Shown: positions 1 to 42,548, counted from the first letter of the stretch. The stretch: DNA of 45,413 nucleotides from Candidatus Nanoarchaeia archaeon (GCA_035288805.1 DATDZG010000036.1:1-45413); one strand, 5' to 3'. Program-made: numbers and translations. Notes: a model not told the origin generated them from the sequence alone.

Positions 1-238
1 GGGAAGGATGTCTTAGTACGAGAGGAACAGGCATTCGTAGCCTCTGGTGATCAGTTGTCTTACAAGGCAGGCTGAGCAGCTACGCTATAAGTCATAACTT
101 CTGAAAGCATCTAAGAAGGAAAGACCCCTTGAAAAGAGACACGAGAAACTCCTGTAAAATACAGGGTTGATAGGATCGTGGTGTACGCACGCAGCGCAAG
201 CAACGTGTTCAGCCAGCGATTACTAATCGTTTCGAAAA
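1..238 (+). rRNA. rrl: 23S rRNA, 3'-terminal ~240 nt (gene continues off the left edge)
   Basis: Sarcin-ricin loop motif AGTACGAGAGGAAC at 15-28, then GAAAGCATCTAAG and GGGTTGATAGG...TACTAAT blocks typical of the LSU 3' domain. No ORF. The 3' end is approximate. Confidence 0.9.
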
Positions 239-263
239 TCTACACTATGTTTTCCAGCAAAAG

Positions 264-1351: not shown

Positions 1352-1397
1352 GTTTTCTTTTTTGCGAACGTTTTTCTTTCCTAAAGAAAAGCTTTTT
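1352..1397 (+). repeat. Composite T/A-rich hairpin repeat, copy R3
   Basis: GTTTTCTTTTTTGCGAAC / GTTTTTCTTTCCTAAAGAAAAGC. Confidence 0.55.
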
Positions 1398-1404
1398 TAA
1401 ATTT
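1394..1404 (+). promoter_or_regulatory. Archaeal TATA-like box upstream of sigma gene 1
   Basis: TTTTTAAATTT lies about 26-28 nt upstream of the ATG at 1430. No Shine-Dalgarno sequence is present. Confidence 0.45.
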
Positions 1405-1429: not shown

Positions 1430-2305
1430 ATGTTAACAGACAAAATACAAGAACCAACTTCAATTCAGCTAAGAGTTATAGGAAGATCTTTAGAAGTGTA
1501 TGCCCAAGATATTGGTGAATATGGCCTTATCTCACGTGAAGAGGAAGAGAATCTCGCCCGCAGGATTCAATTAGGAGATAAAAAAGCAAGAAATAAATTA
1601 GTTGAGGCTAATCTAAGATTCGTATGGACAATAGCAAATGAATATTATTCAGGAAGAACCCCTTTAGAAGATTTAATCAGTTATGGAAATCTAGGATTAA
1701 TTGCTGCGGCAGAAAGATTCAATCCAAAAAAAGCCAGATTCATAACCTACGGCGTTTGGTGGATTAGACAAACTATTCTTCAAGGTATTTTAGAGCAAAG
1801 AACAGTAAGACTCCCAAACAATCGGGTTGATAAACTATCAGACATCCTTGAATTGCAGGGATTAGGATTAAACAATAACCAAATTTCAGAAGAGTTAAGT
1901 TTAACTCAAAAACAATTGGACAGATATCTTTTAGATTTAAGAAACCCTCTTTCTTTAGACCAGCCAATTAATGAGGATAATCAACACACCTTATCATCAA
2001 TTATTCCAGATTTTTATCAAAAAACTCCAGAAGAAGAACTCAAGGAATCAAGTATGAAAGAAGCTGTTAAAGAAGCTCTAGCAACCTTAGAGGAAAGAGA
2101 AGCTGAAGTGATTAGACTAAACTTTGGTCTTGATGATCATGAAGAAAAAAGTCTTGAAGACATAAGCAAACAATTTAGTTTAACAAAAGAAAGGATTAGG
2201 CAAATTAGAAATAAAGCTCTTGAAAAATTAAGGCATTCAAAGAGAGCAAGTATCCTTCAAAGATGCTCTCCAAACCACAAATATACCCTCCCCCAGTATC
2301 TTTAA
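1430..2305 (+). CDS. Sigma-70 family RNA polymerase sigma factor, paralog 1 (regions 1.2, 2, 3, 4)
   Basis: 291 aa. Region 2: LVEANLRFVWTIANEY, DLISYGNLGLIAAAERF, YGVWWIRQTI. Region 3.0: RTVRLPNNRVDKL. Region 4.1: EREAEVIRLNFGL. Region 4.2 HTH: SLTKERIRQIRNKALEKLRH. Confidence 0.9.
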   Translation: MLTDKIQEPTSIQLRVIGRSLEVYAQDIGEYGLISREEEENLARRIQLGDKKARNKLVEANLRFVWTIANEYYSGRTPLEDLISYGNLGLIAAAERFNPKKARFITYGVWWIRQTILQGILEQRTVRLPNNRVDKLSDILELQGLGLNNNQISEELSLTQKQLDRYLLDLRNPLSLDQPINEDNQHTLSSIIPDFYQKTPEEELKESSMKEAVKEALATLEEREAEVIRLNFGLDDHEEKSLEDISKQFSLTKERIRQIRNKALEKLRHSKRASILQRCSPNHKYTLPQYL

Positions 2306-2329
2306 AAATAAAAAAGAACCCCTTATATA

Positions 2330-3241
2330 ATGTCAAGATTACAATACAAAGAAGAACCAACAAAGCAGGATATGAGAGCAATCTCTCAATATCTTAAAGA
2401 GCTGGGAATAGAAGATGTATTGTCAAAAGAAGAAGAATATTCTTTGGTAAAAAGAATGAAGCTAGGCGATGCCGAGGCAAAAGAAAAACTAATAACCTCA
2501 AATCTTCGTTTTGTAGTTTCAGTAGCAAACAAAGAAGCAAGAAAAAGATTTTCTCATTTAAGGGATGACCCATCAGAGTATGATGAAGCAAAAAGTGATC
2601 TTATTTCAGAAGGAAACCTGGGATTAATGAAAGCTATAGAAAGATTTGATGAAACTCAGGGGTATAAACTCATCAGTTATGCAGTCTTTTGGATTAGACA
2701 GGCAATGATAGTTTACTCTTTAAACCAGTCACATACAGTAAGGCTTCCAAGCAATAGAATTGCAGTGCGTTCAAAAGTGAGAAAATTAGAAGATAGCCAT
2801 TATGTCGAAACAGGAGAAAAATTAACCCTGGATGAAATCGCATGTGAAACAGGATTAACAAAATCATCTATCCGTAATGCATTTGCAGTGGACAACAAAC
2901 CAATACGCCTCGACATCCCAATATCTAATGACACAGAGACAACACTTTATGATTTCTTGACCGACCCCCATCAACTCTCCCTGGAGGCATCACTATTAAA
3001 ATCAAAACTCAGGAAAGATATAGAATATTCACTAAAAGGGCTTGCAGAAAGAGAAGCAGAGGTTATCAGATTGTATTTCGGATTAGAAGATAATGGAGAT
3101 GGAAAAACTTTAGAAGAGATAGGAATTAAATTTGGAGTAACAAGAGAAAGAGTCAGGCAAATAAAGGAACAAGCAATAAGAAAGTTAAGGCACCATTCAA
3201 GAAGAGGGAAACTTGAATCTCATTGGAGAGAAATGAATTAA
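2330..3241 (+). CDS. Sigma-70 family RNA polymerase sigma factor, paralog 2
   Basis: 303 aa. Motifs: LITSNLRFVVSVANKE, DLISEGNLGLMKAIERF, YAVFWIRQAM, HTVRLPSNR, EREAEVIRLYFGL, VTRERVRQIKEQAIRKLRH. An extra insert (KRFSHLRDDPSEYDEAKS) lies between regions 2.1 and 2.2. A TTTAAAAATA box at 2301-2310 overlaps the stop of paralog 1. Confidence 0.9.
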   Translation: MSRLQYKEEPTKQDMRAISQYLKELGIEDVLSKEEEYSLVKRMKLGDAEAKEKLITSNLRFVVSVANKEARKRFSHLRDDPSEYDEAKSDLISEGNLGLMKAIERFDETQGYKLISYAVFWIRQAMIVYSLNQSHTVRLPSNRIAVRSKVRKLEDSHYVETGEKLTLDEIACETGLTKSSIRNAFAVDNKPIRLDIPISNDTETTLYDFLTDPHQLSLEASLLKSKLRKDIEYSLKGLAEREAEVIRLYFGLEDNGDGKTLEEIGIKFGVTRERVRQIKEQAIRKLRHHSRRGKLESHWREMN

Positions 3242-3258
3242 TAAACAAGGAAAATCAA

Positions 3259-4116
3259 ATGGCAAATTATGAAAGAGAACCAACATCAATAGGTCTAGAT
3301 TCTTTGGACATTTATTTCAAAGAAGTTAAATCATCAGATAATCTAAGCTATGAACAAGAAAGAGATCTTACAAGAAGAATAAGGTCGGGAGACGAAAGTG
3401 CAAGAGAGGAGTTAGTAGTAAAAAATCTCCGCTTTGTTATCTCTGTTGCAAGAGAGTATAGAAATCTAGGATTGCCTTTAGAAGATTTAATAGGTTGTGG
3501 AAATCTAGGATTAATGAATGCCATACAAGGATTTGACGAAACAAAAGGATTCAAATTTATCAGCTACGCAGTCTTTTGGATTCGACAAGCAATCCTGCAA
3601 AAATTAGCAGAAGAAAGAACAGTAAGAGTTCCTTTAAATCAAATAGACCTTTACTTGAAAATAAAAAAACAAAGAGATGAATACGCAAAAGATAACAATG
3701 GAGAAGAAATCTCTTTAGAAGAACTTGCACAAAAAACAGGCTCAACAACAGCCAAGATAGAATATGCTCTTAAAGCAACGAGAACAAATTTATCCCTAGA
3801 CGCACAATTTGATGAAGATGGAGAAAGAAATTTATATAATCTTCTTGCCTCAAGTGAAACTTCACCCGAACAAGCAGCTTATTTATCCGAGCTCAAAGAA
3901 AAAGTGAGAAGAGCATTAAGCCAGTTAGAACAAAATGAAGCAGAAGTTATCTCTTTGTACTTTGGATTAGAAGATGGAAGGGATAGAATAACCTTAGAAG
4001 AAATCGGCAAGCAGAAGGATTTAACTCGAGAAAGAGTCAGGCAAATCAAAGAAAAAGCCCTAAAGAAGTTAAGGCATAGGAATAGAGGCCTTCATGAATT
4101 ATACAAAGAGATGTAA
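3259..4116 (+). CDS. Sigma-70 family RNA polymerase sigma factor, paralog 3
   Basis: Motifs: LVVKNLRFVISVAREY, DLIGCGNLGLMNAIQGF, YAVFWIRQAI, RTVRVPLNQ, QNEAEVISLYFGL, LTRERVRQIKEKALKKLRH. The start is set at MANYEREPTS by alignment with the EPT(S/K) N-termini of paralogs 1 and 2. The ORF track start at 3223 is less likely. Confidence 0.88.
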   Translation: MANYEREPTSIGLDSLDIYFKEVKSSDNLSYEQERDLTRRIRSGDESAREELVVKNLRFVISVAREYRNLGLPLEDLIGCGNLGLMNAIQGFDETKGFKFISYAVFWIRQAILQKLAEERTVRVPLNQIDLYLKIKKQRDEYAKDNNGEEISLEELAQKTGSTTAKIEYALKATRTNLSLDAQFDEDGERNLYNLLASSETSPEQAAYLSELKEKVRRALSQLEQNEAEVISLYFGLEDGRDRITLEEIGKQKDLTRERVRQIKEKALKKLRHRNRGLHELYKEM

Positions 4117-4133
4117 AAAGAGGCCTAGCAATC

Positions 4134-4141
4134 TTTATAAA
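4134..4141 (+). promoter_or_regulatory. Archaeal TATA box of the ncRNA gene
   Basis: TTTATAAA is centred about 27 nt upstream of the GCCGCG at 4166. Confidence 0.55.
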
Positions 4142-4165
4142 CAATCAACTCGACTTTTTTCATAA

Positions 4166-4420
4166 GCCGCGATGGCACAACCCGGTACTGCGCAAACCTT
4201 TTCTTTTTGAAAAAAGAAAACCTTTACGAAAAGAAAAACAAAGGGCGTTGGCCTGGAAGAGCCTTTTTAGAAAAAAGGTTCGCGAAAAAACGCGATAGGA
4301 AAACTTCCGTACCAGTGAGCTTGTTTCCGCAAGGATATCCCGGTTCAAAAATAAGGGTGCCCACCGGTCCCCTTATAAACCCTCGGGAACCATGAGGGTG
4401 CTGAAAGTCCGGGTCGCGGC
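4166..4420 (+). ncRNA. Structured RNA gene of uncertain identity (RNase P RNA-like motifs; see findings)
   Basis: There is no credible ORF. A TATA box lies at 4134-4141 and a T5 run at 4426-4430. The 5' GCCGCG (4166-4171) pairs with the 3' CGCGGC (4415-4420), and ACCCGG (4180-4185) pairs with CCGGGT (4409-4414). Local hairpins are ACCCTC/GAGGGT (4379-4399) and CC-GCAA-GG (4327-4334). GAAAGTCCGGG (4403-4413) equals the RNase P CR-I core, and ACAACCCGGTA (4177-4187) resembles CR-V. Confidence 0.6.
4196..4290 (-). repeat. Two tandem copies of the hairpin repeat (reverse orientation) inside the ncRNA gene
   Basis: Reverse complement reads CGTTTTTTCGCGAAC-CTTTTTTCTAAAAAGG-CTCTTCCAGGCC... and GTTTTTCTTTTCGTAAA-GGTTTTCTTTTTTCAAAAAGAAAAGG. 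Module order matches R1-R3. Confidence 0.5.
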
Positions 4421-4500
4421 GATTATTTTTCTGGGTGTCTACAAAACAACCCAATTGTAGTCACCTAAGATAGAAACGAAAAACAAAGGAGGAGGAAAAA

Positions 4501-11058: not shown

Positions 11059-11166
11059 ATGGCTGCAAGACGAACAACTGCAAGAAGAACTACTGCACGA
11101 AGATCGACCGCAAAACGATCAACTGCACGAAGATCCACTGCTAGAAGAACAACAAGAAGAAGTTAA
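11059..11166 (+). CDS. 35-aa arginine-rich pentapeptide-repeat micro-protein
   Basis: ATG at 11059 lies 5 nt after AGGAGGT (11048-11054). Translation is MAARRTTARRTTARRSTAKRSTARRSTARRTTRRS, with stop TAA at 11164-11166. A hairpin plus T-run terminator follows. It is absent from the ORF track, presumably because it is under 60 aa. Confidence 0.5.
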   Translation: MAARRTTARRTTARRSTAKRSTARRSTARRTTRRS

Positions 11167-11804: not shown

Positions 11805-11963
11805 TTGTTTTCTTTTTGTAAAACTTTTCTTTGTTTTCCAAGGTTTTTTTCTTTGAAAAGAAAAAAAGCTTTATCGTATTCCATTTTATTTTACATCCTT
11901 AGTTTTCTTTATTCCCCAAGGGCTTTTTCTTTTACAAAAGAAAAAGGGCTTTATCGTATTCCA
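11805..11963 (+). repeat. Two tandem ~80-bp units of the hairpin repeat, each ending in CTTTATCGTATTCCAT
   Basis: The units end at 11884 and 11963 with an identical 16-mer. Its reverse complement ATGGAATACGATAAAG mimics the dph2 start ATGGAATATGAC at 11798. Confidence 0.65.
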
Positions 11964-12064
11964 TGAGCTATAAATGCAAATAACTCCTTTTAAAACTTTC
12001 TATAATTACAATAGCAATCTTTTTATTCTCACTCATACTTCTTTAAACTTATCAAGAGGTTAAC

Positions 12065-12500: not shown

Positions 12501-13223
12501 ATGAAAATTGCTCTTTTTGATTTAGATGAAACTTTAGTAAGAGCAGAATGCAGGAACTATGCTTTAGAAGTGATCTGCCAGGATATCTCAAAAAAAACAA
12601 AAATTCCAGTAAAAATCCTTTCAAATAGCCTCATCCAAATCTGGCATCAAGAAAAAGATCCAAGAAAAAAATATGATTGGGACCAACATATCAAAAAACT
12701 TTGCTCAGAAGTAAAAGTAGAGTTCATATATAATTATGAAACCTCAATCAAAAAAAATATTAACAAAGCAAAACTATTTCCAGATGTCCTGCCTTTATTA
12801 AAATACCTAAAGAAAAATAAATATAAAATCTGCATAATCACAAATGGGTTAAAAAAATACCAATATCCAATAATGAAAAAATTAGGCTTATTGAAATACA
12901 TAAGCAAAGTTTACTCTCCTCACCAAGGGTTTCTAAAACCAGACCCAAGAATCTTTAATAATGAGCTAAAAAACAAACAAGTCTCGTTTTACGCAGATGA
13001 CCAATTATATCAAGGAGTATTTCTGGCAAGAAAAATCCACACAAAATCAATTTTAATCGACAGAAAATTCAAAGCAAAAAATCTAAACAGCTATCTAAGA
13101 AACAAGCTAAGTAATGAGCTAAAAGAAAGAAGATTTGATGTTTCTTTAAAGCATCTTACTCCAGATTACATTGTAAATGATTTAAGAAAAATAATTAAAA
13201 TCCTGGAAAATGAATCTAAATGA
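12501..13223 (+). CDS. HAD-superfamily hydrolase
   Basis: Motif I is ALFDLDETLV (DxDxT), with ITNG and a YADD-type later motif. Confidence 0.65.
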   Translation: MKIALFDLDETLVRAECRNYALEVICQDISKKTKIPVKILSNSLIQIWHQEKDPRKKYDWDQHIKKLCSEVKVEFIYNYETSIKKNINKAKLFPDVLPLLKYLKKNKYKICIITNGLKKYQYPIMKKLGLLKYISKVYSPHQGFLKPDPRIFNNELKNKQVSFYADDQLYQGVFLARKIHTKSILIDRKFKAKNLNSYLRNKLSNELKERRFDVSLKHLTPDYIVNDLRKIIKILENESK

Positions 13224-13265
13224 GCCTTTTTCTTTTGTAAAAGAAAAACCCTCGGGAAAAAGAAA
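13224..13265 (-). repeat. Hairpin repeat copy filling the whole HAD-ogt spacer
   Basis: The plus strand reads GCCTTTTTCTTTTGTAAAAGAAAAACCCTCGGGAAAAAGAAAA. This is the reverse complement of the TTTCTTT-CCCGAGGG-TTTTTCTTTT-loop-AAAAGAAAAAGGC module. Confidence 0.65.
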
Positions 13266-13577
13266 ATGAATTTCAACGAAAAAGTGTATAAGGAATGTAA
13301 GAAAATTCCGAAAGGAAAAGTTTCTACATATAAAGAAATAGGCAAAAAGCTAAACACAAGAGCATATAGGGCAATAGGACAAGCATTAAAAAATAATCCT
13401 TATCCCATACAAGTTCCTTGCCATAGAGTTGTTTCTTCTCAAGGAAAATTGCATGGATTTAAAGGAAAAACCAAAGGAAAAGCATTGAAGGAAAAGCAAA
13501 GAATGTTAGAAGAAGAAGGTTTAACAATCATTAATAATAAAATCCAGGATTTCCAAGATAAACTATTTACTTTCTAA
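13266..13577 (+). CDS. ogt: Methylated-DNA-protein-cysteine methyltransferase, DNA-binding/active-site domain only
   Basis: 103 aa with the PCHRVV active-site motif preceded by the TYKEIGKKL HTH. Confidence 0.8.
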   Translation: MNFNEKVYKECKKIPKGKVSTYKEIGKKLNTRAYRAIGQALKNNPYPIQVPCHRVVSSQGKLHGFKGKTKGKALKEKQRMLEEEGLTIINNKIQDFQDKLFTF

Positions 13578-28695: not shown

Positions 28696-28750
28696 TTTTT
28701 TCCTTTGTTTTTTCTTTCCCGAAGGTTTCTTTTTTACAAAAAAGAAAGGC
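28696..28750 (+). repeat. Hairpin repeat copy filling the whole rpl13-rps9 intercistronic spacer
   Basis: TTTTTTCTTTCCCGAAGG / TTTCTTTTTTACAAAAAAGAAAGG. Confidence 0.7.
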
Positions 28751-29176
28751 TCATCCGTAGTGTTTCTTTCCTCTTAACAGTACAGATAATTCCTCTAAAG
28801 TAACATGTCTTAAGCTTTTTGATTTTCCAATATCGGCTTTTTCTACTTTCATGGCTTCCTTGCCTTCAAACTGGTCAGGAACCCCAAGATAGCATTTTAC
28901 TCTTTTAAAAGCTTCTTGACCTCTTGAAACCTTCCAAGGCAGCATTCCTCTAATGGTTCTTTTCAAGATTCTATCCGAAGTTTTAGGAAAGTAAGGTCCT
29001 TTGAAAGGGTTTCCTCTTTTAACCTTGGCATCATAATGTGCAAGAATCATTTTCTTGCTTCCTGTAATGCAGGCCTTATCAGCATTGATAATATCAACCT
29101 GTTGCCCAAGCAATACCTGCTTCGCAGCATAAGCAGCTATTTTTCCAGCAATCCCATTTTCAGCATCGATTATCAT
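28751..29176 (-). CDS. rpl13: 50S ribosomal protein L13 (uL13)
   Basis: MIIDAENGIAGKIAAYAAKQVLLGQQVDIINADKACITG is the typical uL13 N-terminus. An alternative GTG start at 29182 would overlap the upstream ORF stop. Confidence 0.92.
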   Translation of the reverse strand: MIIDAENGIAGKIAAYAAKQVLLGQQVDIINADKACITGSKKMILAHYDAKVKRGNPFKGPYFPKTSDRILKRTIRGMLPWKVSRGQEAFKRVKCYLGVPDQFEGKEAMKVEKADIGKSKSLRHVTLEELSVLLRGKKHYG

Positions 29177-30067: not shown

Positions 30068-30214
30068 TGCGGAGAACAGGATTCGAAATCGCAGCCTCTT
30101 AGGATTCTCGGTTTTCTTTCCCGAGGGTTTCTTTTCCCAAAAGAAAGGCTCCTGCGTAGGCACTAAGCCACCAGCTCCTTAGGCTGGCGCGTTTGACCAC
30201 TCCGCCATCTCCGC
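30068..30214 (-). tRNA. tRNA-Leu, anticodon read as AAG, with a ~63-nt intron in the T-arm (30088-30150)
   Basis: The minus strand reads GCGGAGA-TG-GCGGAGTGGTCAAACGC-G-CCAGC-CTAAGGA-GCTGG-T-GGCTTAGTGCC-TAC-GCAGG-[intron]-TTCGAAT-CCTGT-TCTCCGC-A. It has a class II long variable arm. The T-stem GCAGG/CCTGT forms only if 30088-30150 is removed. No CCA is encoded. A TATA box lies at 30240-30247. Confidence 0.75.
30110..30149 (+). repeat. Hairpin repeat copy forming most of the tRNA intron
   Basis: GGTTTTCTTTCCCGAGGG / TTTCTTTTCCCAAAAGAAAGGC. Near-identical module to 28710-28750. Confidence 0.65.
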
Positions 30215-31393: not shown

Positions 31394-32173
31394 TTATTTG
31401 CTCTTTTTCAACTCTTTTTCAAACTCATTCAGTTTCTTATCAAAAATCTCAAGGGCCTTTAAAAAAATCTCTTTAATCTCTAACTGCCCAAAGCTTTCCA
31501 TTGTAAAAATAAACTTATCTTTTTTTCCTCGAACCTCAACATTGTCATCATTATCCATGCACGCATTACAAAGAACGCATTTCTCAAGATGCTTCACTTT
31601 TAATTTCCCAGAATCAACTTCAAAAACTTTTGTAGGGCATACAGAAGCAACAGATTCAGGATTTTTCACAGCCCCAATTTTAATCTCAGGATAATGCTGG
31701 TAGTAAAACCATCCAGGAGAAAATTTCATATGTGTTTTTCCTTTTCCAAGAACAGCAACAGCATCTAATTTAAGCTTCTGATTTTTTTCAAGTTTAACCA
31801 AAACCATGTTGTCATAAACCGGTTTTACTTCAGGGTCTTTGCATTTCAAATCCCCAGAATAAACAGTGCAGGGTCCAGCAGCTTCCAAAGTAAAATCAAC
31901 CTGGCATAAAGCACATCCTTCTCCCTTGCATTTGCATTCATCTTTTAAATTGTAAGATTTCAAATCTGTTTTCAAAGGAACCAAACCAATTCTGTGAGCA
32001 AGAAACTCATCGTACAAAGCAGAGCCATTTTTATGAAATTCAACTTCAGCTATAGCCATAGTAGGAACCTCAGCAATCATCAATCTCCTTAGAGTATTTG
32101 CCATAACATAATCAATACCCTCAAGAGAAATTTGCAGTTTATTTTCAGATTGAGCCAGAATCTTAGTTTCCAT
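31394..32173 (-). CDS. rpoD: DNA-directed RNA polymerase subunit D (Rpo3) with Fe-S cluster domain
   Basis: It has VMANTLRRLMIAEVPTMAI and LAHRIGLVPL, plus the cysteine clusters CKCKGEGCALCQ and CPTKVF...CVLCNAC. The start is set at METKIL, with an alternative at 32194. Confidence 0.9.
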   Translation of the reverse strand: METKILAQSENKLQISLEGIDYVMANTLRRLMIAEVPTMAIAEVEFHKNGSALYDEFLAHRIGLVPLKTDLKSYNLKDECKCKGEGCALCQVDFTLEAAGPCTVYSGDLKCKDPEVKPVYDNMVLVKLEKNQKLKLDAVAVLGKGKTHMKFSPGWFYYQHYPEIKIGAVKNPESVASVCPTKVFEVDSGKLKVKHLEKCVLCNACMDNDDNVEVRGKKDKFIFTMESFGQLEIKEIFLKALEIFDKKLNEFEKELKKSK

Positions 32174-32199
32174 TGATAGAAAACTGAAAAACACACTTT

Positions 32200-35483: not shown

Positions 35484-35614
35484 CTTTTGGGAATACAAAA
35501 CATTATGCTTTTCTTTGTGGATACAAAGTTTTTTTTAAATTCTTTCTTTATTTCCCGAGGGTTTTTCGTTTTGCTTTTTCTTTCCCAGGGGTTTCTTTTT
35601 ACAAAAAGAAAGGC
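35484..35614 (+). repeat. Composite repeat block (two degenerate GGGAATACAAAAC-type heads plus two T-rich/CCCGAGGG modules plus hairpin)
   Basis: CTTTTGGGAATACAAAAC, CTTTGTGGATACAAAG, TTTCTTTATTTCCCGAGGGTTTTTCG and TTTTTCTTTCCCAGGGGTTTCTTTTTACAAAAAGAAAGGCC. It ends at the helicase stop codon. Confidence 0.6.
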
Positions 35615-37003
35615 CTACATGTTGTATTGGCTTCTTCCAAAACCTCTTCCTTTAGAATCCTGATGCTCTCTTCTTCCTTCTCTTCCAGGGCTAAAGCTTC
35701 TTCTTCCATCACTATACTCTCTCTTCTCTCCAGAGTGTTCTCTTCTCCCATCAGAATCTCTCCTGCCCTGGAATCCACCACGAGAACCTCCAGAGTGTCC
35801 TCCTCGGAACCCAGAAGAACCTCTCCCTCTAAACCCAGAACCCTCCCTAAAATTTCCTCGAGAAAACTCTCTTCTCTGCTTCTGCAAATAAGGATATCTT
35901 TGAAACTCAGGAACATCAATTCTTGGAATATCCAAACTTCTATCTCTTAAAACGTTTCTAAAATTATCATGGTCTTTATTTGAAAGGAAAGTTATAGCCT
36001 CTCCAGATTCTCCCGCTCTTGCCGTTCTCCCAATCCTATGCACATAATCTTCAGAAGTTTTAGGAACATCATAATTGTAAACATAAACAACATTCTTAAT
36101 ATCCAATCCTCGGGCAGCAACATCAGTAGCAACGAGAACTTGAATATGCTGTTTCTTCAGAGAATCCAGGGCAAAATCTCTTCTATTCTGGCTTAAACCG
36201 CCGTGAATAGCCATCGCATTAACCCCATTTTTCTGCAAGTTATAGGACAAAGAATCAACTTGATGTCTTGTAGCACAAAAAACCAAAGATAAGCCTTTAT
36301 TATGTTTATTCAAAAAATGAACCATCAAAGAAAATCTTTCATATTCTTTAACCTCATAATAACTCTGTTTCAACAAGCTTTTGTCAACACTAGTTTTTGT
36401 TTTCAGCATAACAGGATTATGCAAATATCTATGGATAATGCCTTTGACATTTTCAGGGATAGTAGCGCTAAACAACAATGTTTGCCTTTGTTTGGGCAAT
36501 TGATTTATAATGCTTTCAACATCTTCAACAAAGCCCATCTCACACATCTTATCAACCTCATCTAAAACAAGAAATTTTATATGTTTTGTATTAAAAGAGC
36601 CTCTTTTCAAATGGTCCATAAGTCTTCCAGGTGTTGCAACAATAACTTCAGCTCTTCTAAACTCGTTAAATTGAGGATTAATCCCAACCCCTCCATAAAC
36701 AGCACCAACATGCAATCCAATTCCTCTTCCAAATAATTCAAAAGCGTCTTTAACCTGAACACATAGCTCTCTTGTAGGGGTTAAAACCAGTACTTGTACA
36801 CCCTTTCCCTTAACTATCTTATCAAGAATAGGTAAGTTAAACGCAATAGTCTTTCCAGAACCAGTTTCAGATTGTCCAACAACATCTTTTCCTTTATGTA
36901 TCTCAGGAATAACTTTTTCTTGGATAGAAGTTGCATCAGTAAATCCATGTTTATGGAGTTGTTCTAGTAAGCTTGGTTTCAAGCCGAATTCTTCAAATTT
37001 CAT
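35615..37003 (-). CDS. DEAD-box ATP-dependent RNA helicase with RG/RGG-rich C-terminal tail
   Basis: Motifs: Q-motif/GFTDATSIQ, SETGSGKT, PTRELC, DEVD (in LVLDEVDKM), SAT, HRIGRTARAG. The last ~90 aa are RG/RGG repeats. Confidence 0.92.
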   Translation of the reverse strand: MKFEEFGLKPSLLEQLHKHGFTDATSIQEKVIPEIHKGKDVVGQSETGSGKTIAFNLPILDKIVKGKGVQVLVLTPTRELCVQVKDAFELFGRGIGLHVGAVYGGVGINPQFNEFRRAEVIVATPGRLMDHLKRGSFNTKHIKFLVLDEVDKMCEMGFVEDVESIINQLPKQRQTLLFSATIPENVKGIIHRYLHNPVMLKTKTSVDKSLLKQSYYEVKEYERFSLMVHFLNKHNKGLSLVFCATRHQVDSLSYNLQKNGVNAMAIHGGLSQNRRDFALDSLKKQHIQVLVATDVAARGLDIKNVVYVYNYDVPKTSEDYVHRIGRTARAGESGEAITFLSNKDHDNFRNVLRDRSLDIPRIDVPEFQRYPYLQKQRREFSRGNFREGSGFRGRGSSGFRGGHSGGSRGGFQGRRDSDGRREHSGEKREYSDGRRSFSPGREGRREHQDSKGRGFGRSQYNM

Positions 37004-40128: not shown

Positions 40129-40911
40129 TTATAAATATTTACTTTGTACCAACTTTTTAGTGGGATTAAAACAATTTTTCATCAACAAATATCCCCCAAT
40201 CAAAATCATCGCAATACTAAACCACTGCCCTAAACTCAAACCAAGATAATGTAAATCCTCTCTAAAGAAATCAACAGCAAATCTTCCAATCCCTTCTAAT
40301 AAAAGATAAGAAAAGAACACAACCCCAGCTTTTTTCTTTATTTTGCTTATCCCTAAAAGACCAAAGAAAATAAAGAATCTATATCCAGCAGCATACAGTT
40401 GTTGGGGATGTCTGCACCCATCAACCAAAGGAAACACAACGCACCAGGAAACATTTGTCACAGTTCCAACAAGTTCTCCATTAATAAAATTCCCAATCCT
40501 TCCAAAAGCCAAAGCTAATGCAGCAGGAATCACAATCACATCAGCCAGTTCCAAGAAAGCAAGTTTCCTTTTCTTAGAAAACAACCAAACAGCAATAACC
40601 AGCCCAAATAAACCACCATGATAACTCATCCCGGAAATCCCTTTCCAAAAAGCAATAATTTCTATAAGATGATTATAATAATAACCAGGACTCCAAAACA
40701 AAACTTCAAATAACCTCGCCCCAATAATTGTTCCTATAATCATCCATGCAGTTAAGTCATAACAATCATCCTTGCTCAATCCAAGTTTCTCTCTTTTTCT
40801 AATCAATAAAAACAAAGCAAGTAAGAATCCAAATAAATAAGCTAAGCTGTAATAATAAATCTTAAAGCTCCCGAGAGAGAACAAAACAGGATTTAAATCG
40901 TGGATGTACAT
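40129..40911 (-). CDS. lgt: Prolipoprotein diacylglyceryl transferase (Lgt)
   Basis: 260 aa. GMSYHGGLFG, FGRIGNFINGELVG, RHPQQLY and DFFRED match the conserved Lgt blocks one for one. Confidence 0.88.
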   Translation of the reverse strand: MYIHDLNPVLFSLGSFKIYYYSLAYLFGFLLALFLLIRKREKLGLSKDDCYDLTAWMIIGTIIGARLFEVLFWSPGYYYNHLIEIIAFWKGISGMSYHGGLFGLVIAVWLFSKKRKLAFLELADVIVIPAALALAFGRIGNFINGELVGTVTNVSWCVVFPLVDGCRHPQQLYAAGYRFFIFFGLLGISKIKKKAGVVFFSYLLLEGIGRFAVDFFREDLHYLGLSLGQWFSIAMILIGGYLLMKNCFNPTKKLVQSKYL

Positions 40912-41441: not shown

Positions 41442-41868
41442 GATAATCACCTTTAGCCCCATAAGAATTTAATAAATTCCTCATTATTGTTCTTACATCT
41501 TGTTCATGATGAGAAGTTACCTCGTTTTTGGCATACAAATCATGATGCACTCCTTCATGCTCTCTAGCCTCTCTATCAACCCCAACAGCTTCTTTAGTGC
41601 TAGGATTATACCACCCAGCAATTCCAGGAGGTAATTCTTGAGGAGTAACAAACTTAAATGTAAACCCCTCTCTTATTCTTTGCTCATAATGCGTTTCTCT
41701 TATTCTGTAAGAATCATCTACAAACTCATTTTCTTTTTCCCAAGGGTTTTTCTTTCCAGAAGAAAAAGGCTTATCTAAGACAGGTACATTCCCAATCAAA
41801 TAATATTGAGGTTTTTCAGAACTTTTCTCAGCTTCTTTAACCATATACTCTAAACTAACCCTGACCAT
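41434..41868 (-). CDS. Hypothetical protein carrying an in-frame copy of the hairpin repeat
   Basis: 144-aa ORF that overlaps both neighbours (operonic). Residues VLDKPFSSGKKNPWEKEN are encoded by the repeat copy at 41729-41770. Confidence 0.5.
   Translation of the reverse strand: MVRVSLEYMVKEAEKSSEKPQYYLIGNVPVLDKPFSSGKKNPWEKENEFVDDSYRIRETHYEQRIREGFTFKFVTPQELPPGIAGWYNPSTKEAVGVDREAREHEGVHHDLYAKNEVTSHHEQDVRTIMRNLLNSYGAKGDYHV
41729..41770 (+). repeat. Hairpin repeat copy inside a CDS
   Basis: TTTTCTTTTTCCCAAGGG / TTTTTCTTTCCAGAAGAAAAAGGC. It is close to the intergenic copy at 42170-42212. Confidence 0.65.
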
Positions 41869-42132: not shown

Positions 42133-42212
42133 CTTTGTTTTCTTTTTCCCAAGGATTTCTTCTATATGCTTTCTTTTTCCCAAGGATTTTTTCTTTGCAA
42201 AGAAAAAAGGCT
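42133..42212 (+). repeat. Two tandem hairpin-repeat modules upstream of the glutaredoxin operon
   Basis: GCTTTGTTTTCTTTTTCCCAAGGATTTCTTC... and GCTTTCTTTTTCCCAAGGATTTTTTCTTTGCAAAGAAAAAAGGC. Confidence 0.65.
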
Positions 42213-42215
42213 TAT

Positions 42216-42548
42216 TTAAAGCCCTAATCTTCTCTCCTTGTCTTGTATCAATCTATGTTCAACTCTTCTCAAAGTCTTATCAACGCTTTGACCTATTCCA
42301 TACTCACTTCCATGAGCAGCTATACTTCTTCCTCTGCCCCAAAACCTCGCCTTGCAAAGAAACAAAGGCACTTTTTTCAGCCTCTCACTGTTTTGTCTTA
42401 TATTTAGCTTTAATGCCCCAGATTTCAATACTCTCTTGTATTTGCCAACAAGCCCAGAAACCTCTTCTCTTATCCCTCTTTTATCTATAGGGTTCAATCT
42501 CCTTAACTTACCAACAAATCTTATAGAGATAGCTACATCTTCTACCAT
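42216..42548 (-). CDS. Possible ribosome hibernation factor (HPF/RaiA, S30AE family)-like protein
   Basis: The pattern is collinear with HPF: ISIRFVGKLRRLNPIDKRGIREEV..., KLNIRQ..., then FWGRGRSIAAHGSEYGIGQSVDKTLRRVEHRLIQDKERR. Compare HPF V.I.G..hhAs.e..D.Y.AID...DKL.RQL.K.K. The start is uncertain (42548, 42620 or the TTG at 42671). Confidence 0.4.
   Translation of the reverse strand: MVEDVAISIRFVGKLRRLNPIDKRGIREEVSGLVGKYKRVLKSGALKLNIRQNSERLKKVPLFLCKARFWGRGRSIAAHGSEYGIGQSVDKTLRRVEHRLIQDKERRLGL

Follow-up and report, generated by a model that had tools for sequence, protein, structure and literature searches.

The window, that is, the whole stretch of DNA analysed, is a contig of 45,413 nucleotides from Candidatus Nanoarchaeia archaeon (GCA_035288805.1, DATDZG010000036.1:1-45413). 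Near its start lie three consecutive open reading frames (ORFs) on the same strand, of exactly the sizes given in the preliminary description (291, 303 and 285 aa), which we call sigma-1, sigma-2 and sigma-3. The features of the locus, and two further genes of the contig that bear on it, are the following.

1-246, plus strand: 3' exon of the archaeal 23S (LSU) rRNA gene (Rfam RF02540 LSU_rRNA_archaea, 204 bits, E=1e-60).
1208-1262 and 1342-1396, no strand assigned: two copies of a contig-wide intergenic T-rich hairpin repeat (TTTTCTTTTT..CCCAAGG..TTTTTCTTTacaaAAGAAAAA; repeat family D1), upstream of sigma-1.
1396-1402, plus strand: TATA box (TTTAAAT), 34 nt upstream of the sigma-1 ATG; archaeal leaderless-type promoter.
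1430-2305, plus strand: sigma-1, 291 aa, sigma-70 family, regions 1.2-4.2 without region 1.1; Pfam r1_2, r2, r3 and r4 above the gathering score.
2301-2308, plus strand: TATA-like box (TTTAAAAA), 29 nt upstream of the sigma-2 ATG, overlapping the sigma-1 stop codon.
2330-3241, plus strand: sigma-2, 303 aa, sigma-70 family, with W433F and an altered region 2.4; Pfam r1_2, r2, r3 and r4 above the gathering score.
2555-2590, plus strand: 12-aa insertion (HLRDDPSEYDEA; residues 76-87 of sigma-2), placed by alignment between regions 2.1 and 2.2.
3259-4116, plus strand: sigma-3, 285 aa from its ATG, sigma-70 family, with W433F and E407C; Pfam r1_2, r2 and r4 above the gathering score.
4197-4244, no strand assigned: further copy of the intergenic hairpin repeat, downstream of sigma-3 (inverted-repeat pairs I3 and I8).
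31394-32194, minus strand: archaeal RNA polymerase subunit D (Rpo3; NCBIfam PRK00783 equivalog, 303 bits against a cut-off of 153; Pfam RNA_pol_A_bac and RNA_pol_L).
40129-40911: Lgt, a clearly bacterial-type gene on the same contig as the sigma cluster.

Each ORF had been described as carrying the complete sigma-70 signature, and the motifs quoted for it (NLRFV, GNLGL, VWWIRQ/VFWIRQ, RTVRxP, EAEVIxLxFGL and T[KR]ER[IV]RQI...KLRH) are indeed present in the translations. In Pfam searches, Sigma70_r1_2 (PF00140) scored above its gathering threshold in all three ORFs, as did Sigma70_r2 (PF04542; 53.4, 42.3 and 53.2 bits for sigma-1, -2 and -3, cut-off 24) and Sigma70_r4 (PF04545; 51.6, 73.7 and 55.2 bits, cut-off 24.1). 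Sigma70_r3 (PF04539) exceeded its cut-off in sigma-1 and sigma-2 and remained slightly under it in sigma-3 (23.9 against 25.3 bits). Regions 1.2 and 3 occur in the expected order, and alignment to the SigA chains of the PDB is full-length, the entry closest in sequence to sigma-3 being SigA 7l7b (E=8e-54). An AlphaFold2 model of sigma-2 was all-helical (pLDDT 72.4), and its top 50 Foldseek matches were exclusively sigma A, RpoD, RpoS and SigB entries (probability 1.0). The corresponding TM-scores were low (0.26-0.32) because the domain arrangements of free and holoenzyme-bound sigma differ. The proteins did not reach the NCBIfam equivalog thresholds for RpoD/SigA (best RpoD models 209-213 bits, cut-offs 555-572), nor that of the RpoS model (189-208 bits, cut-off 378.7). 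Region 1.1 is absent from all three, their N-termini beginning 14-20 residues ahead of region 1.2; an alternative TTG start at 3223 would extend sigma-3 to 297 aa. Judged by their sequences, the three ORFs are genuine, intact genes of the sigma-70 family.

The archaeal 23S exon lies 1.2 kb upstream of the sigma cluster on the same contig, and the cluster is thus physically linked to an archaeal chromosome. The presence of RNA polymerase (RNAP) subunit D indicates that the polymerase of the host is of archaeal type. Other archaeal markers listed in the preliminary description were also recovered (aEF-1alpha, aEF-2, archaeal-type PheRS, L18e, Rpr2/Rpp21 and PTH2), together with S10, S9 and L13, and one member of the 90% cluster of EF-1alpha is a 'Candidatus Nanoarchaeia archaeon' protein. 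The statement that every lineage-diagnostic gene of the window is archaeal was too strong, Lgt being of bacterial type. Among the scanned ORFs of the 45-kb window we found no bacterial core RNAP (beta, beta-prime), and no anti-sigma domain among those of at least 100 aa.

Eight more contigs, drawn from seven other samples, carry the NIF3/three-sigma/cupredoxin locus with 98.4-99.9% identity, as expected if it is no assembly artefact. One of these independent assemblies (L001) also carries the archaeal 23S exon, at 365-608, upstream of the same sigma locus, and contigs from other samples span both flanks of the sigma block (1212-1430 and 4117-4500). The window and five of the eight contigs have all three ORFs intact; two of the others end inside sigma-1, and the last is a strain variant in which region 4.2 of sigma-3 is deleted. 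Population SNVs at the locus are scarce, below the number needed for pN/pS. The sigma genes do share the local composition: their GC (0.34-0.36) and GC3 (0.23-0.26) match those of the other contig genes, and their RSCU distance is 0.49-0.66, against 0.56+-0.10 for other genes. The sigma-70 genes reside in the archaeal chromosome and are not part of a chimera.

The nearest relatives of the three proteins are sigmas of about 285 aa (284-287 aa) from Latescibacteria, Zixibacteria, Bacteroidota and Gemmatimonadota, with 47-52% identity; they include primary sigmas of Zixibacteria from the Rifle site. For sigma-1, an exhaustive search of 1.84 G representatives gave as best non-self relative the Latescibacteria-type protein P0009 (48% identity), while sigma-3 is nearest to primary sigmas of Bacteroidota and Latescibacteria (49-52%). 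The closest relatives on viral contigs reach only 32%. The three copies had been called clearly diverged paralogs. They are strongly diverged (38-44% identity among themselves), but each is closer to bacterial sigmas than to the other two, and their monophyly was recovered in 0 of 100 neighbour-joining (NJ) bootstraps; duplication within the archaeon is therefore unsupported. An ancestor of this DPANN (Nanoarchaeia, Woesearchaeota-like) lineage probably took the genes from an FCB-type bacterium (Latescibacteria, Zixibacteria, Bacteroidota), a group whose primary sigma has about 285 aa and no region 1.1. They have since been domesticated, with host-like composition and codon usage, and archaeal TATA boxes at sigma-1 and sigma-2.

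The insert reported in one copy between regions 2.1 and 2.2 proved to be the 12-aa insertion of sigma-2. It is common only to P0123, a sigma-2 ortholog on a second archaeal contig (53% identity, grouped with sigma-2 in 100 of 100 NJ bootstraps), and was found in none of 79 metagenome loci besides the window's own and in none of four viral loci checked. The sigma-2 clade, which has two lineages in a set of 5.8 G proteins, is very rare. An archaeal 23S 3' exon precedes P0123 by 2.9 kb, and the gene of P0123 has a TATA box at -30. This suggests that at least the sigma-2 type was handed down within an archaeal lineage, at a site immediately following the 23S rRNA gene. The 23S exons of the two contigs share about 93% identity while sigma-2 and P0123 share 53%, and the sigma-2 protein thus evolves fast.

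TTTAWA motifs start at -30 to -26 from the ATG in 13 of 57 genes of the contig, and in at most 3 in any other 5-nt bin. The sigma-2 box (-29) falls inside this peak and the sigma-1 box (-34) just outside it. The three genes had been said to sit behind TTTAAAT-type boxes at leaderless spacing; this holds for sigma-1 and sigma-2 but not for sigma-3, which starts 17 nt after sigma-2 without a TATA of its own and is therefore probably co-transcribed with it. The hairpin repeat does occur on both flanks of the cluster, as described, and has eight copies across the contig. Sigma-type promoter sites are not enriched in the window: TTGACA/TATAAT-like sites numbered 63 in the first 20 kb (64.6+-8.3 expected), Bacteroidetes-type TTTG-N-TAnnTTTG sites 3 in the window (4.2 expected) and TAnnTTTG sites 45 in the window (63 expected).

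Conservation was assessed against 299 bacterial relatives, which show at least 90% conservation in 86 alignment columns. Of these columns, 10-17 differ in the archaeal copies, within the range seen in bacteria, where E. coli sigma-70 differs at 20. Identity between archaeal pairs was 0.66-0.82 in conserved, 0.31-0.44 in intermediate and 0.12-0.33 in variable columns, against 0.86, 0.36 and 0.13 for bacterial pairs of equal divergence. Functional positions mostly match the FCB primary-sigma consensus. Retained residues comprise D403, L404, I405, G408, N409, G411 and L412, with the region 2 motif DLIxxGNxGL; F419, Y430, W434, R436 and Q437, which form the pocket for the single-stranded -10 element; and E585, R586, R588 and Q589 in region 4, whose 4.2 helix-turn-helix (HTH) is the best-conserved part of the proteins. 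In the region 3.2 linker signature, D508 is present in all four archaeal copies, S506 in sigma-1 and sigma-3, and P510 in sigma-1, sigma-2 and P0123. The residues that serve core binding, melting of the -10 element and recognition of the -35 element are thus largely kept. W433, invariant in 299 of 299 bacterial relatives, has been replaced by F in sigma-2 and sigma-3, and sigma-1 and sigma-3 lack E407 (E407Y/C); some relaxation is therefore evident.

Sigma factors in archaea are less new than the preliminary description implied. PMC6126073 credits them to Rinke et al. 2013, and Castelle et al. 2021 (PMC8204110) describe sigma-70 (protein family fam00359) as 'particularly prevalent in Woesearchaeota', with mis-binning excluded, anti-sigma not found and the mechanism unknown. 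The window locus is another case of these reported, unexplained genes. It resembles them in combining bacterial-type sigma-70 with archaeal markers on one contig and in coming from a Nanoarchaeia (Woesearchaeota-like) organism in the same kind of aquifer data; it differs in its tandem array of three strongly diverged copies. Relative to the available portion of Castelle et al., the FCB-type affinity, the rRNA-proximal position in two archaeal lineages, the sigma-2 insert, W433F and the archaeal TATA promoters are new here.

Three known systems were compared with the locus. The FCB/Bacteroidota primary sigma has the same length (about 285 aa), the same regions 1.2-4.2 without 1.1, and the highest identity (47-52%). 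In contrast, the window proteins miss the RpoD equivalog thresholds, two of them have W433 replaced, their host RNAP is archaeal, and Bacteroidetes -33/-7 motifs are not enriched in the window. The nuclear-encoded plastid sigmas of plants (SIG1-SIG6) and the sigmas of phages are also encoded by genomes without the bacterial core that they serve, as several diverged paralogs lacking region 1.1. The window resembles them in all these respects, whereas their bacterial-type core partner is known and that of the window sigmas is not, and viral-contig relatives of the latter reach only the 32% given above. Sigma genes of huge phages are mentioned in PMC7162821. In the third system, the MZA anti-phage system, the C-terminal sigma domain of MzaA aligns with the window proteins (PADLOC 114-125 bits, NCBIfam 186-214 bits), but only over some 240 C-terminal positions of profiles with 683 (PADLOC) and 726 (NCBIfam). 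A full-length MzaA of about 700 aa, and with it an MZA system, was rejected, as the match covers PADLOC positions 420-666 of 683 and the NCBIfam scores lie far under the cut-off of 800. Seven scanned neighbours gave no meaningful PADLOC match to MzaB-E or other defence proteins; a TrmB gene 1.6 kb from the sigma cluster gave a marginal CasR match (E=0.00098).

Taken as a whole, the best explanation, which we advance tentatively, is that the sigmas may act in association with the archaeon's own polymerase. Selection would keep the sigma architecture: the region 2.2 helix gripping the clamp coiled-coil of RNAP, the aromatic and basic residues that capture the -10 strand once it has melted, the linker of region 3.2 and the HTH of region 4.2, which reads the -35 element. 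That the -10 single-strand pocket and the 3.2 linker are retained speaks for a role on RNAP and against one on duplex DNA only. The sigmas would be sequence-specific promoter factors inside the archaeon, region 2 docking on the structurally homologous clamp coiled-coil of archaeal Rpo1. Binding to AT-rich -10/-35-like DNA, they might modulate or redirect the start of transcription at some of the promoters, together with TBP/TFB/TFE. Three specificities are proposed for the three copies because these differ in region 2.4, at W433 and at E407. We infer that the genes are expressed and under purifying selection within archaea, and that they have a polymerase partner and target promoters. Sigma further depends on the beta flap-tip helix and on the beta protrusion, of which we know no clear equivalent in archaeal RNAP, and TFB already lies where region 3.2 would have to run. 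Against action on the archaeal polymerase also stand the lack of sigma-type promoter enrichment in the 45-kb window, W433F, the loss of E407, the fast evolution of sigma-2 and the strain without region 4.2 of sigma-3.

The core-contact residues appear bacterial-like and not re-adapted, which would fit a bacterial core partner at least as well. The sigmas could accordingly be made by the archaeon and work in trans on the bacterial-type RNAP core of a physically associated bacterium, host or prey (an FCB-group member of that aquifer, for example), redirecting its transcription, a reading that we consider unlikely. It would agree with the bacterial form of the core-binding, -10-melting and -35 residues, with the kinship to bacterial primary sigmas, Rifle-site Zixibacteria included, and with the absence of a bacterial core and of sigma-type promoters from the window. 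Lgt, another bacterial import on the contig, suggests intimate contact with bacteria, and the analysis published in PMC8204110 found no anti-sigma factors. We saw, however, neither a signal peptide nor a secretion-related neighbour of the sigma genes; the sigmas would work less well with a bacterial core, given W433F and the missing E407; and a host would have no obvious advantage from being given near-housekeeping sigmas. The DPANN hosts that we know of so far are archaea, which also counts against such a partner.

It is likewise improbable that the sigmas are stand-alone regulators, binding duplex DNA through region 4.2 (with 2.4 and 3.0) without contacting a polymerase. Archaea routinely use bacterial-type HTH proteins as repressors and activators, and the nearby TrmB gene fits such use. 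The lack of the auto-inhibitory region 1.1, the proteins starting at region 1.2, the strong conservation of the 4.2 HTH and the changes at some core-contact and melting residues (W433F, E407Y/C) are also consistent with it. A duplex binder would, however, not need the -10 pocket residues, the region 2.2 helix or the 3.2 linker signature, all of which are conserved nearly as in bacterial pairs of equal divergence, and no -35-like motif is enriched.

We give little credence to the idea that the genes are functionless, horizontally acquired passengers drifting toward loss. The rapid divergence of sigma-2 from P0123, the replacement of the otherwise invariant W433, the region 4.2 deletion in one strain variant and the rarity of the sigma-2 clade would all suit decay. 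Against it stand the intact ORFs in most assemblies, a strongly non-neutral conservation pattern, ameliorated codon usage with archaeal promoters of their own at sigma-1 and sigma-2, and the persistence of the sigma-2 type in two archaeal lineages at the same rRNA-proximal position. Finally, a chimeric sigma block, a bacterial contig or an undetected bacterial-type core RNAP is largely refuted and extremely improbable: gene content was judged on 45 kb of the genome and close relatives are absent from a scan of GTDB representatives, but both junctions are spanned in other samples, the contig carries the archaeal 23S exon, subunit D and translation factors, its composition is homogeneous, no beta or beta-prime gene occurs in the window, and Castelle et al. 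(PMC8204110) excluded mis-binning for the family and report TBP/TFB/TFE in the genomes.

Intact sigma genes beside an archaeal polymerase raise the question of whether sigma works on archaeal RNAP or is exported to a bacterial partner, a question sharpened by the conserved core-binding and DNA-melting residues, the archaeal promoters and what appears to be inheritance at one shared locus in two related archaea. Sigma on the one hand and TBP/TFB/TFE on the other are textbook markers of bacterial and of archaeal/eukaryotic transcription start, and to our knowledge archaeal sigma genes have been noted in the literature and never examined. The locus offers three diverged test proteins and one ortholog, in which W433F, E407Y/C, the insert between regions 2.1 and 2.2 and region 2.4 are the residues to probe. 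That the sigmas are used with a non-cognate polymerase, be it through the clamp coiled-coil of the archaeon's own RNAP or by reprogramming that of a bacterial host, seems to us plausible, if a little short of probable. If they act on the archaeal enzyme, initiation or its regulation would follow a hybrid bacterial/archaeal pathway with three promoter specificities; if on a bacterial host, the sigmas would be passed to it and would reprogram its RNAP in the manner of those made by plant nuclei and phages. In both cases a function would be established for the first time for an archaeon-encoded sigma factor, which would bear on the interchangeability of initiation factors across the domains of life.

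The sigma cluster and associated features on the contig are listed here.

1-246, 3' end of an archaeal 23S rRNA (Rfam RF02540, 204 bits)
1396-1402, TATA box TTTAAAT of sigma-1, at -34 from the ATG
1430-2305, + strand, sigma-1, ORF of 291 aa
2301-2308, box TTTAAAAA of sigma-2, at -29 from the ATG, overlapping the sigma-1 stop codon
2330-3241, + strand, sigma-2, ORF of 303 aa
3259-4116, + strand, sigma-3, 285 aa counted from the ATG; alternative start TTG at 3223
31394-32194, archaeal RNA polymerase (RNAP) subunit D (NCBIfam equivalog, 303 bits vs a cut-off of 153)

The three tandem ORFs are real and intact sigma-70 genes. Every signature motif quoted in the preliminary description was found in them, and a profile check recovered the corresponding regions: the Pfam models Sigma70_r1_2, Sigma70_r2 and Sigma70_r4 were over gathering score in all three proteins and Sigma70_r3 in sigma-1 and sigma-2, with sigma-3 marginally under the threshold of this last model (23.9 vs 25.3 bits). 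The closest NCBIfam models were of the RpoD/RpoS/SigB type, at 189-214 bits, far short of the equivalog cut-offs (378-572 bits). A sequence search of the PDB returned SigA, RpoD and RpoS chains (best 7l7b, E=8e-54). The AlphaFold2 model of sigma-2 (pLDDT 72.4) contains helices throughout and matched in Foldseek only sigma chains of holoenzyme structures, with a probability of 1.0. Region 1.1 is missing from the three proteins. The insert that had been noticed in one copy between regions 2.1 and 2.2 is that of sigma-2 and comprises 12 residues (76-87).

These genes are resident and ameliorated in the chromosome of a DPANN archaeon. In addition to the 23S rRNA end and RNAP subunit D, the window encodes aEF-1alpha, aEF-2, archaeal-type PheRS alpha/beta, S10, S9, L13, L18e, Rpr2/Rpp21 and PTH2, together with a 5S rRNA and a tRNA that presumably contains an intron. 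Since a protein named 'Candidatus Nanoarchaeia archaeon' belongs to the EF-1alpha cluster at 90% identity, the source was assigned to the DPANN class that includes Woesearchaeota/Pacearchaeota. The stretch running from NIF3 through the three sigma genes to cupredoxin and DoxX was recovered, at 98.4-99.9% identity, on eight further contigs. These derive from seven other samples, two of them JGI metagenomes and five ENA assemblies, with two reassembled Rifle samples among the latter. On one of the contigs, L001, the archaeal 23S exon again lies upstream of the sigma locus. The composition of the sigma genes (GC 0.34-0.36, GC3 0.23-0.26, RSCU distance 0.49-0.66) falls inside the spread of the other window genes (GC3 0.288+-0.038, RSCU distance 0.56+-0.10), and a T-rich hairpin repeat with copies contig-wide flanks the cluster at 1208-1262, 1342-1396 and 4197-4244. 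Recurrence of the locus in other samples, host-like composition and the contig-wide repeat effectively exclude a chimera or mis-binning. The genes are therefore no assembly artefact, as had been proposed from their local composition and from the repeat family on both sides.

Another bacterial import on the contig, besides the cupredoxin and DoxX genes adjoining the sigma cluster, is a bacterial-type prolipoprotein diacylglyceryl transferase, Lgt (40129-40911, - strand; TIGR00544, 175 bits vs a cut-off of 118.9). A 147-nt tRNA found by Rfam (30068-30214, - strand; 37.6 bits) and missed by ARAGORN is presumably an intron-containing archaeal tRNA. At 11063-11152 (+ strand) lies a tandem 15-nt unit, CTGCAAGAAGAACTA-like, in about six units, or five overlapping 30-nt copies at 15-nt spacing; no + strand ORF of at least 100 aa was present there.

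The motif TTTAWA starts at -30 to -26 from the ATG in 13 of 57 genes, every other 5-nt bin holding at most 3, a peak characteristic of leaderless archaeal promoters. Archaeal TATA boxes precede sigma-1 and sigma-2; sigma-3 starts 17 nt past sigma-2 without a box of its own. The TATA-type box at leaderless spacing, previously attributed to the sigma genes as a group, thus holds for the first two copies and not for the third. The 385-nt intergenic region between sigma-3 and the cupredoxin gene (4117-4500) contains a GC-richer stretch (4166-4425, + strand) that folds far better than shuffled sequences on the + strand (z = -4.16; - strand, z = -1.0), with a closing helix GCCGCGA/UCGCGGC and the motif 'CUGAAAGUCCGGG'. 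No Rfam RNA, including 6S, SRP and RNase P, was detected in the flanks of the sigma cluster, this stretch included, even at E up to 10. In the strain variant L006 the sub-domain at 4357-4402 has a different sequence and the closing helices are retained. The stretch is a candidate for an unclassified structured RNA; alternatively, the cupredoxin gene, which is Shine-Dalgarno-led, may have it as a long 5' leader. The hairpin repeats are intergenic elements of about 50 nt, in both orientations, made of a T-rich run, CCCAAGG/CCCGAGG and a TTTTTCTTT-loop-AAAGAAAAA hairpin. Besides the three copies that flank the sigma cluster, they occur at 11806-11964 and 13217-13289 in the first half, and at 28697-28751, 30099-30153, 35562-35616, 41717-41777 and 42136-42226 in the second. 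They may serve as bidirectional terminators or may represent a small mobile/REP-like repeat.

Pairwise identity is 38-44% among the three sigmas and 47-52% to the best bacterial proteins. The named best matches are 284-289-aa proteins called 'primary sigma / RpoD/SigA' from Latescibacteria, Zixibacteria, Bacteroidota (Cytophagales) and Gemmatimonadota, that is, short FCB-type primary sigmas that likewise lack region 1.1. Judged by sequence comparison, the sigma genes are of FCB-type bacterial ancestry. An exhaustive HMMER pass with sigma-1 over 1.84 billion representatives gave, its own cluster aside, nothing above 48% identity. The scan of GTDB species representatives with sigma-3 gave Bacillota sigmas at 40% identity only, which indicates that the organism and its close relatives are absent from that collection. 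The contexts of P0006 and P0008, the next-best non-self hits, look bacterial (NlpC/P60, Obg). A viral origin is unsupported, as IMG/VR holds no close relatives (none for sigma-2; phage sigmas at 32% for sigma-1).

A neighbour-joining (NJ) tree of 82 sequences was star-like, and its sole supported grouping (100/100) joined sigma-2 to P0123, its ortholog on a second archaeal contig. The number of shared residues that bacteria rarely have (<10%) is 9-13 for archaeal pairs and 2.8+-4.1 for equally diverged bacterial pairs, a hint of common descent with AT-driven amino-acid convergence as a confounder. The earlier designation of the genes as diverged paralogs is accurate as to divergence; duplication within the archaeon is plausible only, since monophyly of the three window sigmas was obtained in 0/100 NJ bootstraps and the sharing of rare residues may be AT-driven. 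In regions 2.2-2.3, copies that are about 40% identical as proteins are 77-80% identical in DNA over 73-95 nt (2612-2706 vs 3499-3593; 1661-1733 vs 3475-3547). F433, M413 and I416 are common to sigma-2 and sigma-3 and absent from P0123. Gene conversion among the tandem copies is possible.

P0123 (304 aa, 53% identity to sigma-2) carries the sigma-2 insert. It is encoded on CAZVAU010000019.1 (NCBI MAG GCA_964625195.1), 2.9 kb downstream of an archaeal 23S 3' exon (207.8 bits, model positions 2724-2973), and has a TTTATAA box at -30. The LAGLIDADG endonuclease ORF ahead of this exon indicates an rRNA intron. The 23S exons of the two contigs are about 93% identical. In both organisms a sigma gene follows the 23S gene at a distance of 1.2-2.9 kb, which points to a common ancestor that already had the sigma-2 type and passed it on vertically. 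No member of this insert-bearing clade other than sigma-2 and P0123 turned up in 5.8 billion proteins or in the 79 metagenome loci that remain with the window's own set aside, these loci having standard bacterial-type spacing only; the metagenome scan with P0123 was dominated by the universal motif FDETKGFK. One metagenome locus, L040, seemed similar at first and is probably bacterial, as its next ORF reads as an electron-transfer flavoprotein. The 23S match has an abrupt start, at model position 2724, in both organisms (window 1-246; L001 1-608; L012, the locus of the second organism, 214-1131). Ahead of it lie a LAGLIDADG homing-endonuclease ORF in L012 and 364 nt of non-rRNA sequence in L001, so that the 23S gene probably has an intron at this site. 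The window contig starts 12 nt inside the last 23S exon.

Conservation was analyzed on 86 alignment columns at least 90% conserved in 299 bacterial-type relatives, with residues numbered on what we take to be the E. coli sigma-70 sequence (length of 613 aa and landmark residues checked). Deviations numbered 17 in sigma-1, 15 in sigma-2, 10 in sigma-3, 16 in P0123 and 20 in E. coli sigma-70. The four archaeal copies lie inside the bacterial range, as many deviations being present in 15 to 54 of these 299 relatives. Archaeal pairs, compared with bacterial pairs matched for overall divergence, had identities of 0.66-0.82 vs 0.86 in conserved columns, 0.31-0.44 vs 0.36 in intermediate columns and 0.12-0.33 vs 0.13 in variable columns. 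The conservation pattern is sigma-like; as read from these alignments, it is clearly non-neutral, with a modest relaxation.

Functional residues kept in the archaeal copies
Region 2.2 clamp-binding helix: D403, L404, I405, G408, N409, G411, L412
-10 single-strand pocket and melting: F419, Y430, W434, R436, Q437
Region 3.2 signature: D508 in 4/4 copies; S506 in sigma-1 and sigma-3 (R in sigma-2 and P0123); P510 in three (Q in sigma-3)
Flap contact: F563, G564, L598, L607
-35 readers: R584 (K in sigma-1), E585, R586, R588, Q589

W433 is present in all 299 bacterial sequences and replaced by F in sigma-2 and sigma-3; E407, found in 88% of bacteria, is replaced by Y in sigma-1 and by C in sigma-3. 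In sigma-2 and P0123, region 2.4 reads I-[V/L]-Y-S in place of L-Q-A-L. SNVs among the nine strain assemblies were too few for pN/pS. In L014, a contig of a Rifle-sample assembly (SAMN03202994), a deletion/replacement of about 160 nt (1926-1946 vs window 3970-4130) removes region 4.2 of sigma-3, and the ORF runs into downstream intergenic sequence (protein P0005). This variant is either a natural strain without sigma-3 function or an assembly error.

We infer that the three sigmas are expressed and have kept some sigma-like function. An RNAP-associated role is favoured over pure duplex-DNA binding because the proteins retain the region 2.2 helix, the 3.2 linker and the -10 single-strand pocket. 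Our first-ranked proposal, a tentative one, is that the sigmas act on the archaeon's own RNAP, on which they would dock through the structurally conserved Rpo1 clamp coiled-coil; it was placed first because an acquired gene is by default used in the recipient cell. Action on the RNAP of a bacterial partner fits about as well, the core contacts being in a bacterial-like state, and is a possibility to which we give rather little weight. Stand-alone DNA binding is likewise unlikely, as it would have no need of the three retained elements. Drift of the genes toward loss seems improbable. Lastly, an artefact or a hidden bacterial core is very hard to credit. No bacterial beta/beta-prime or anti-sigma gene was found among the scanned window ORFs of at least 100 aa. 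E. coli-type promoter sites were not enriched in the first 20 kb (63 vs 64.6+-8.3 in shuffles), and neither were Bacteroidetes-type TTTG-N17-21-TAnnTTTG sites (3 vs 4.2+-1.9 expected) nor TAnnTTTG alone (45 vs 63+-8 expected). An MZA defence system was rejected, the sole PADLOC match being to the C-terminal sigma domain of MzaA.

Archaeal sigma-70 genes have already been published. A 2018 review (PMC6126073) credits their first description to Rinke et al. 2013. Castelle et al. 2021 (PMC8204110) report sigma-70 genes (fam00359) in DPANN genomes, 'particularly prevalent in Woesearchaeota', with mis-binning ruled out, anti-sigma factors not found and the controlling mechanism unclear. No report of a function for archaeal sigma factors was found in the literature searched. 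The present locus is thus a well-documented case and no new category. The phenomenon itself is genuinely odd and directly testable.
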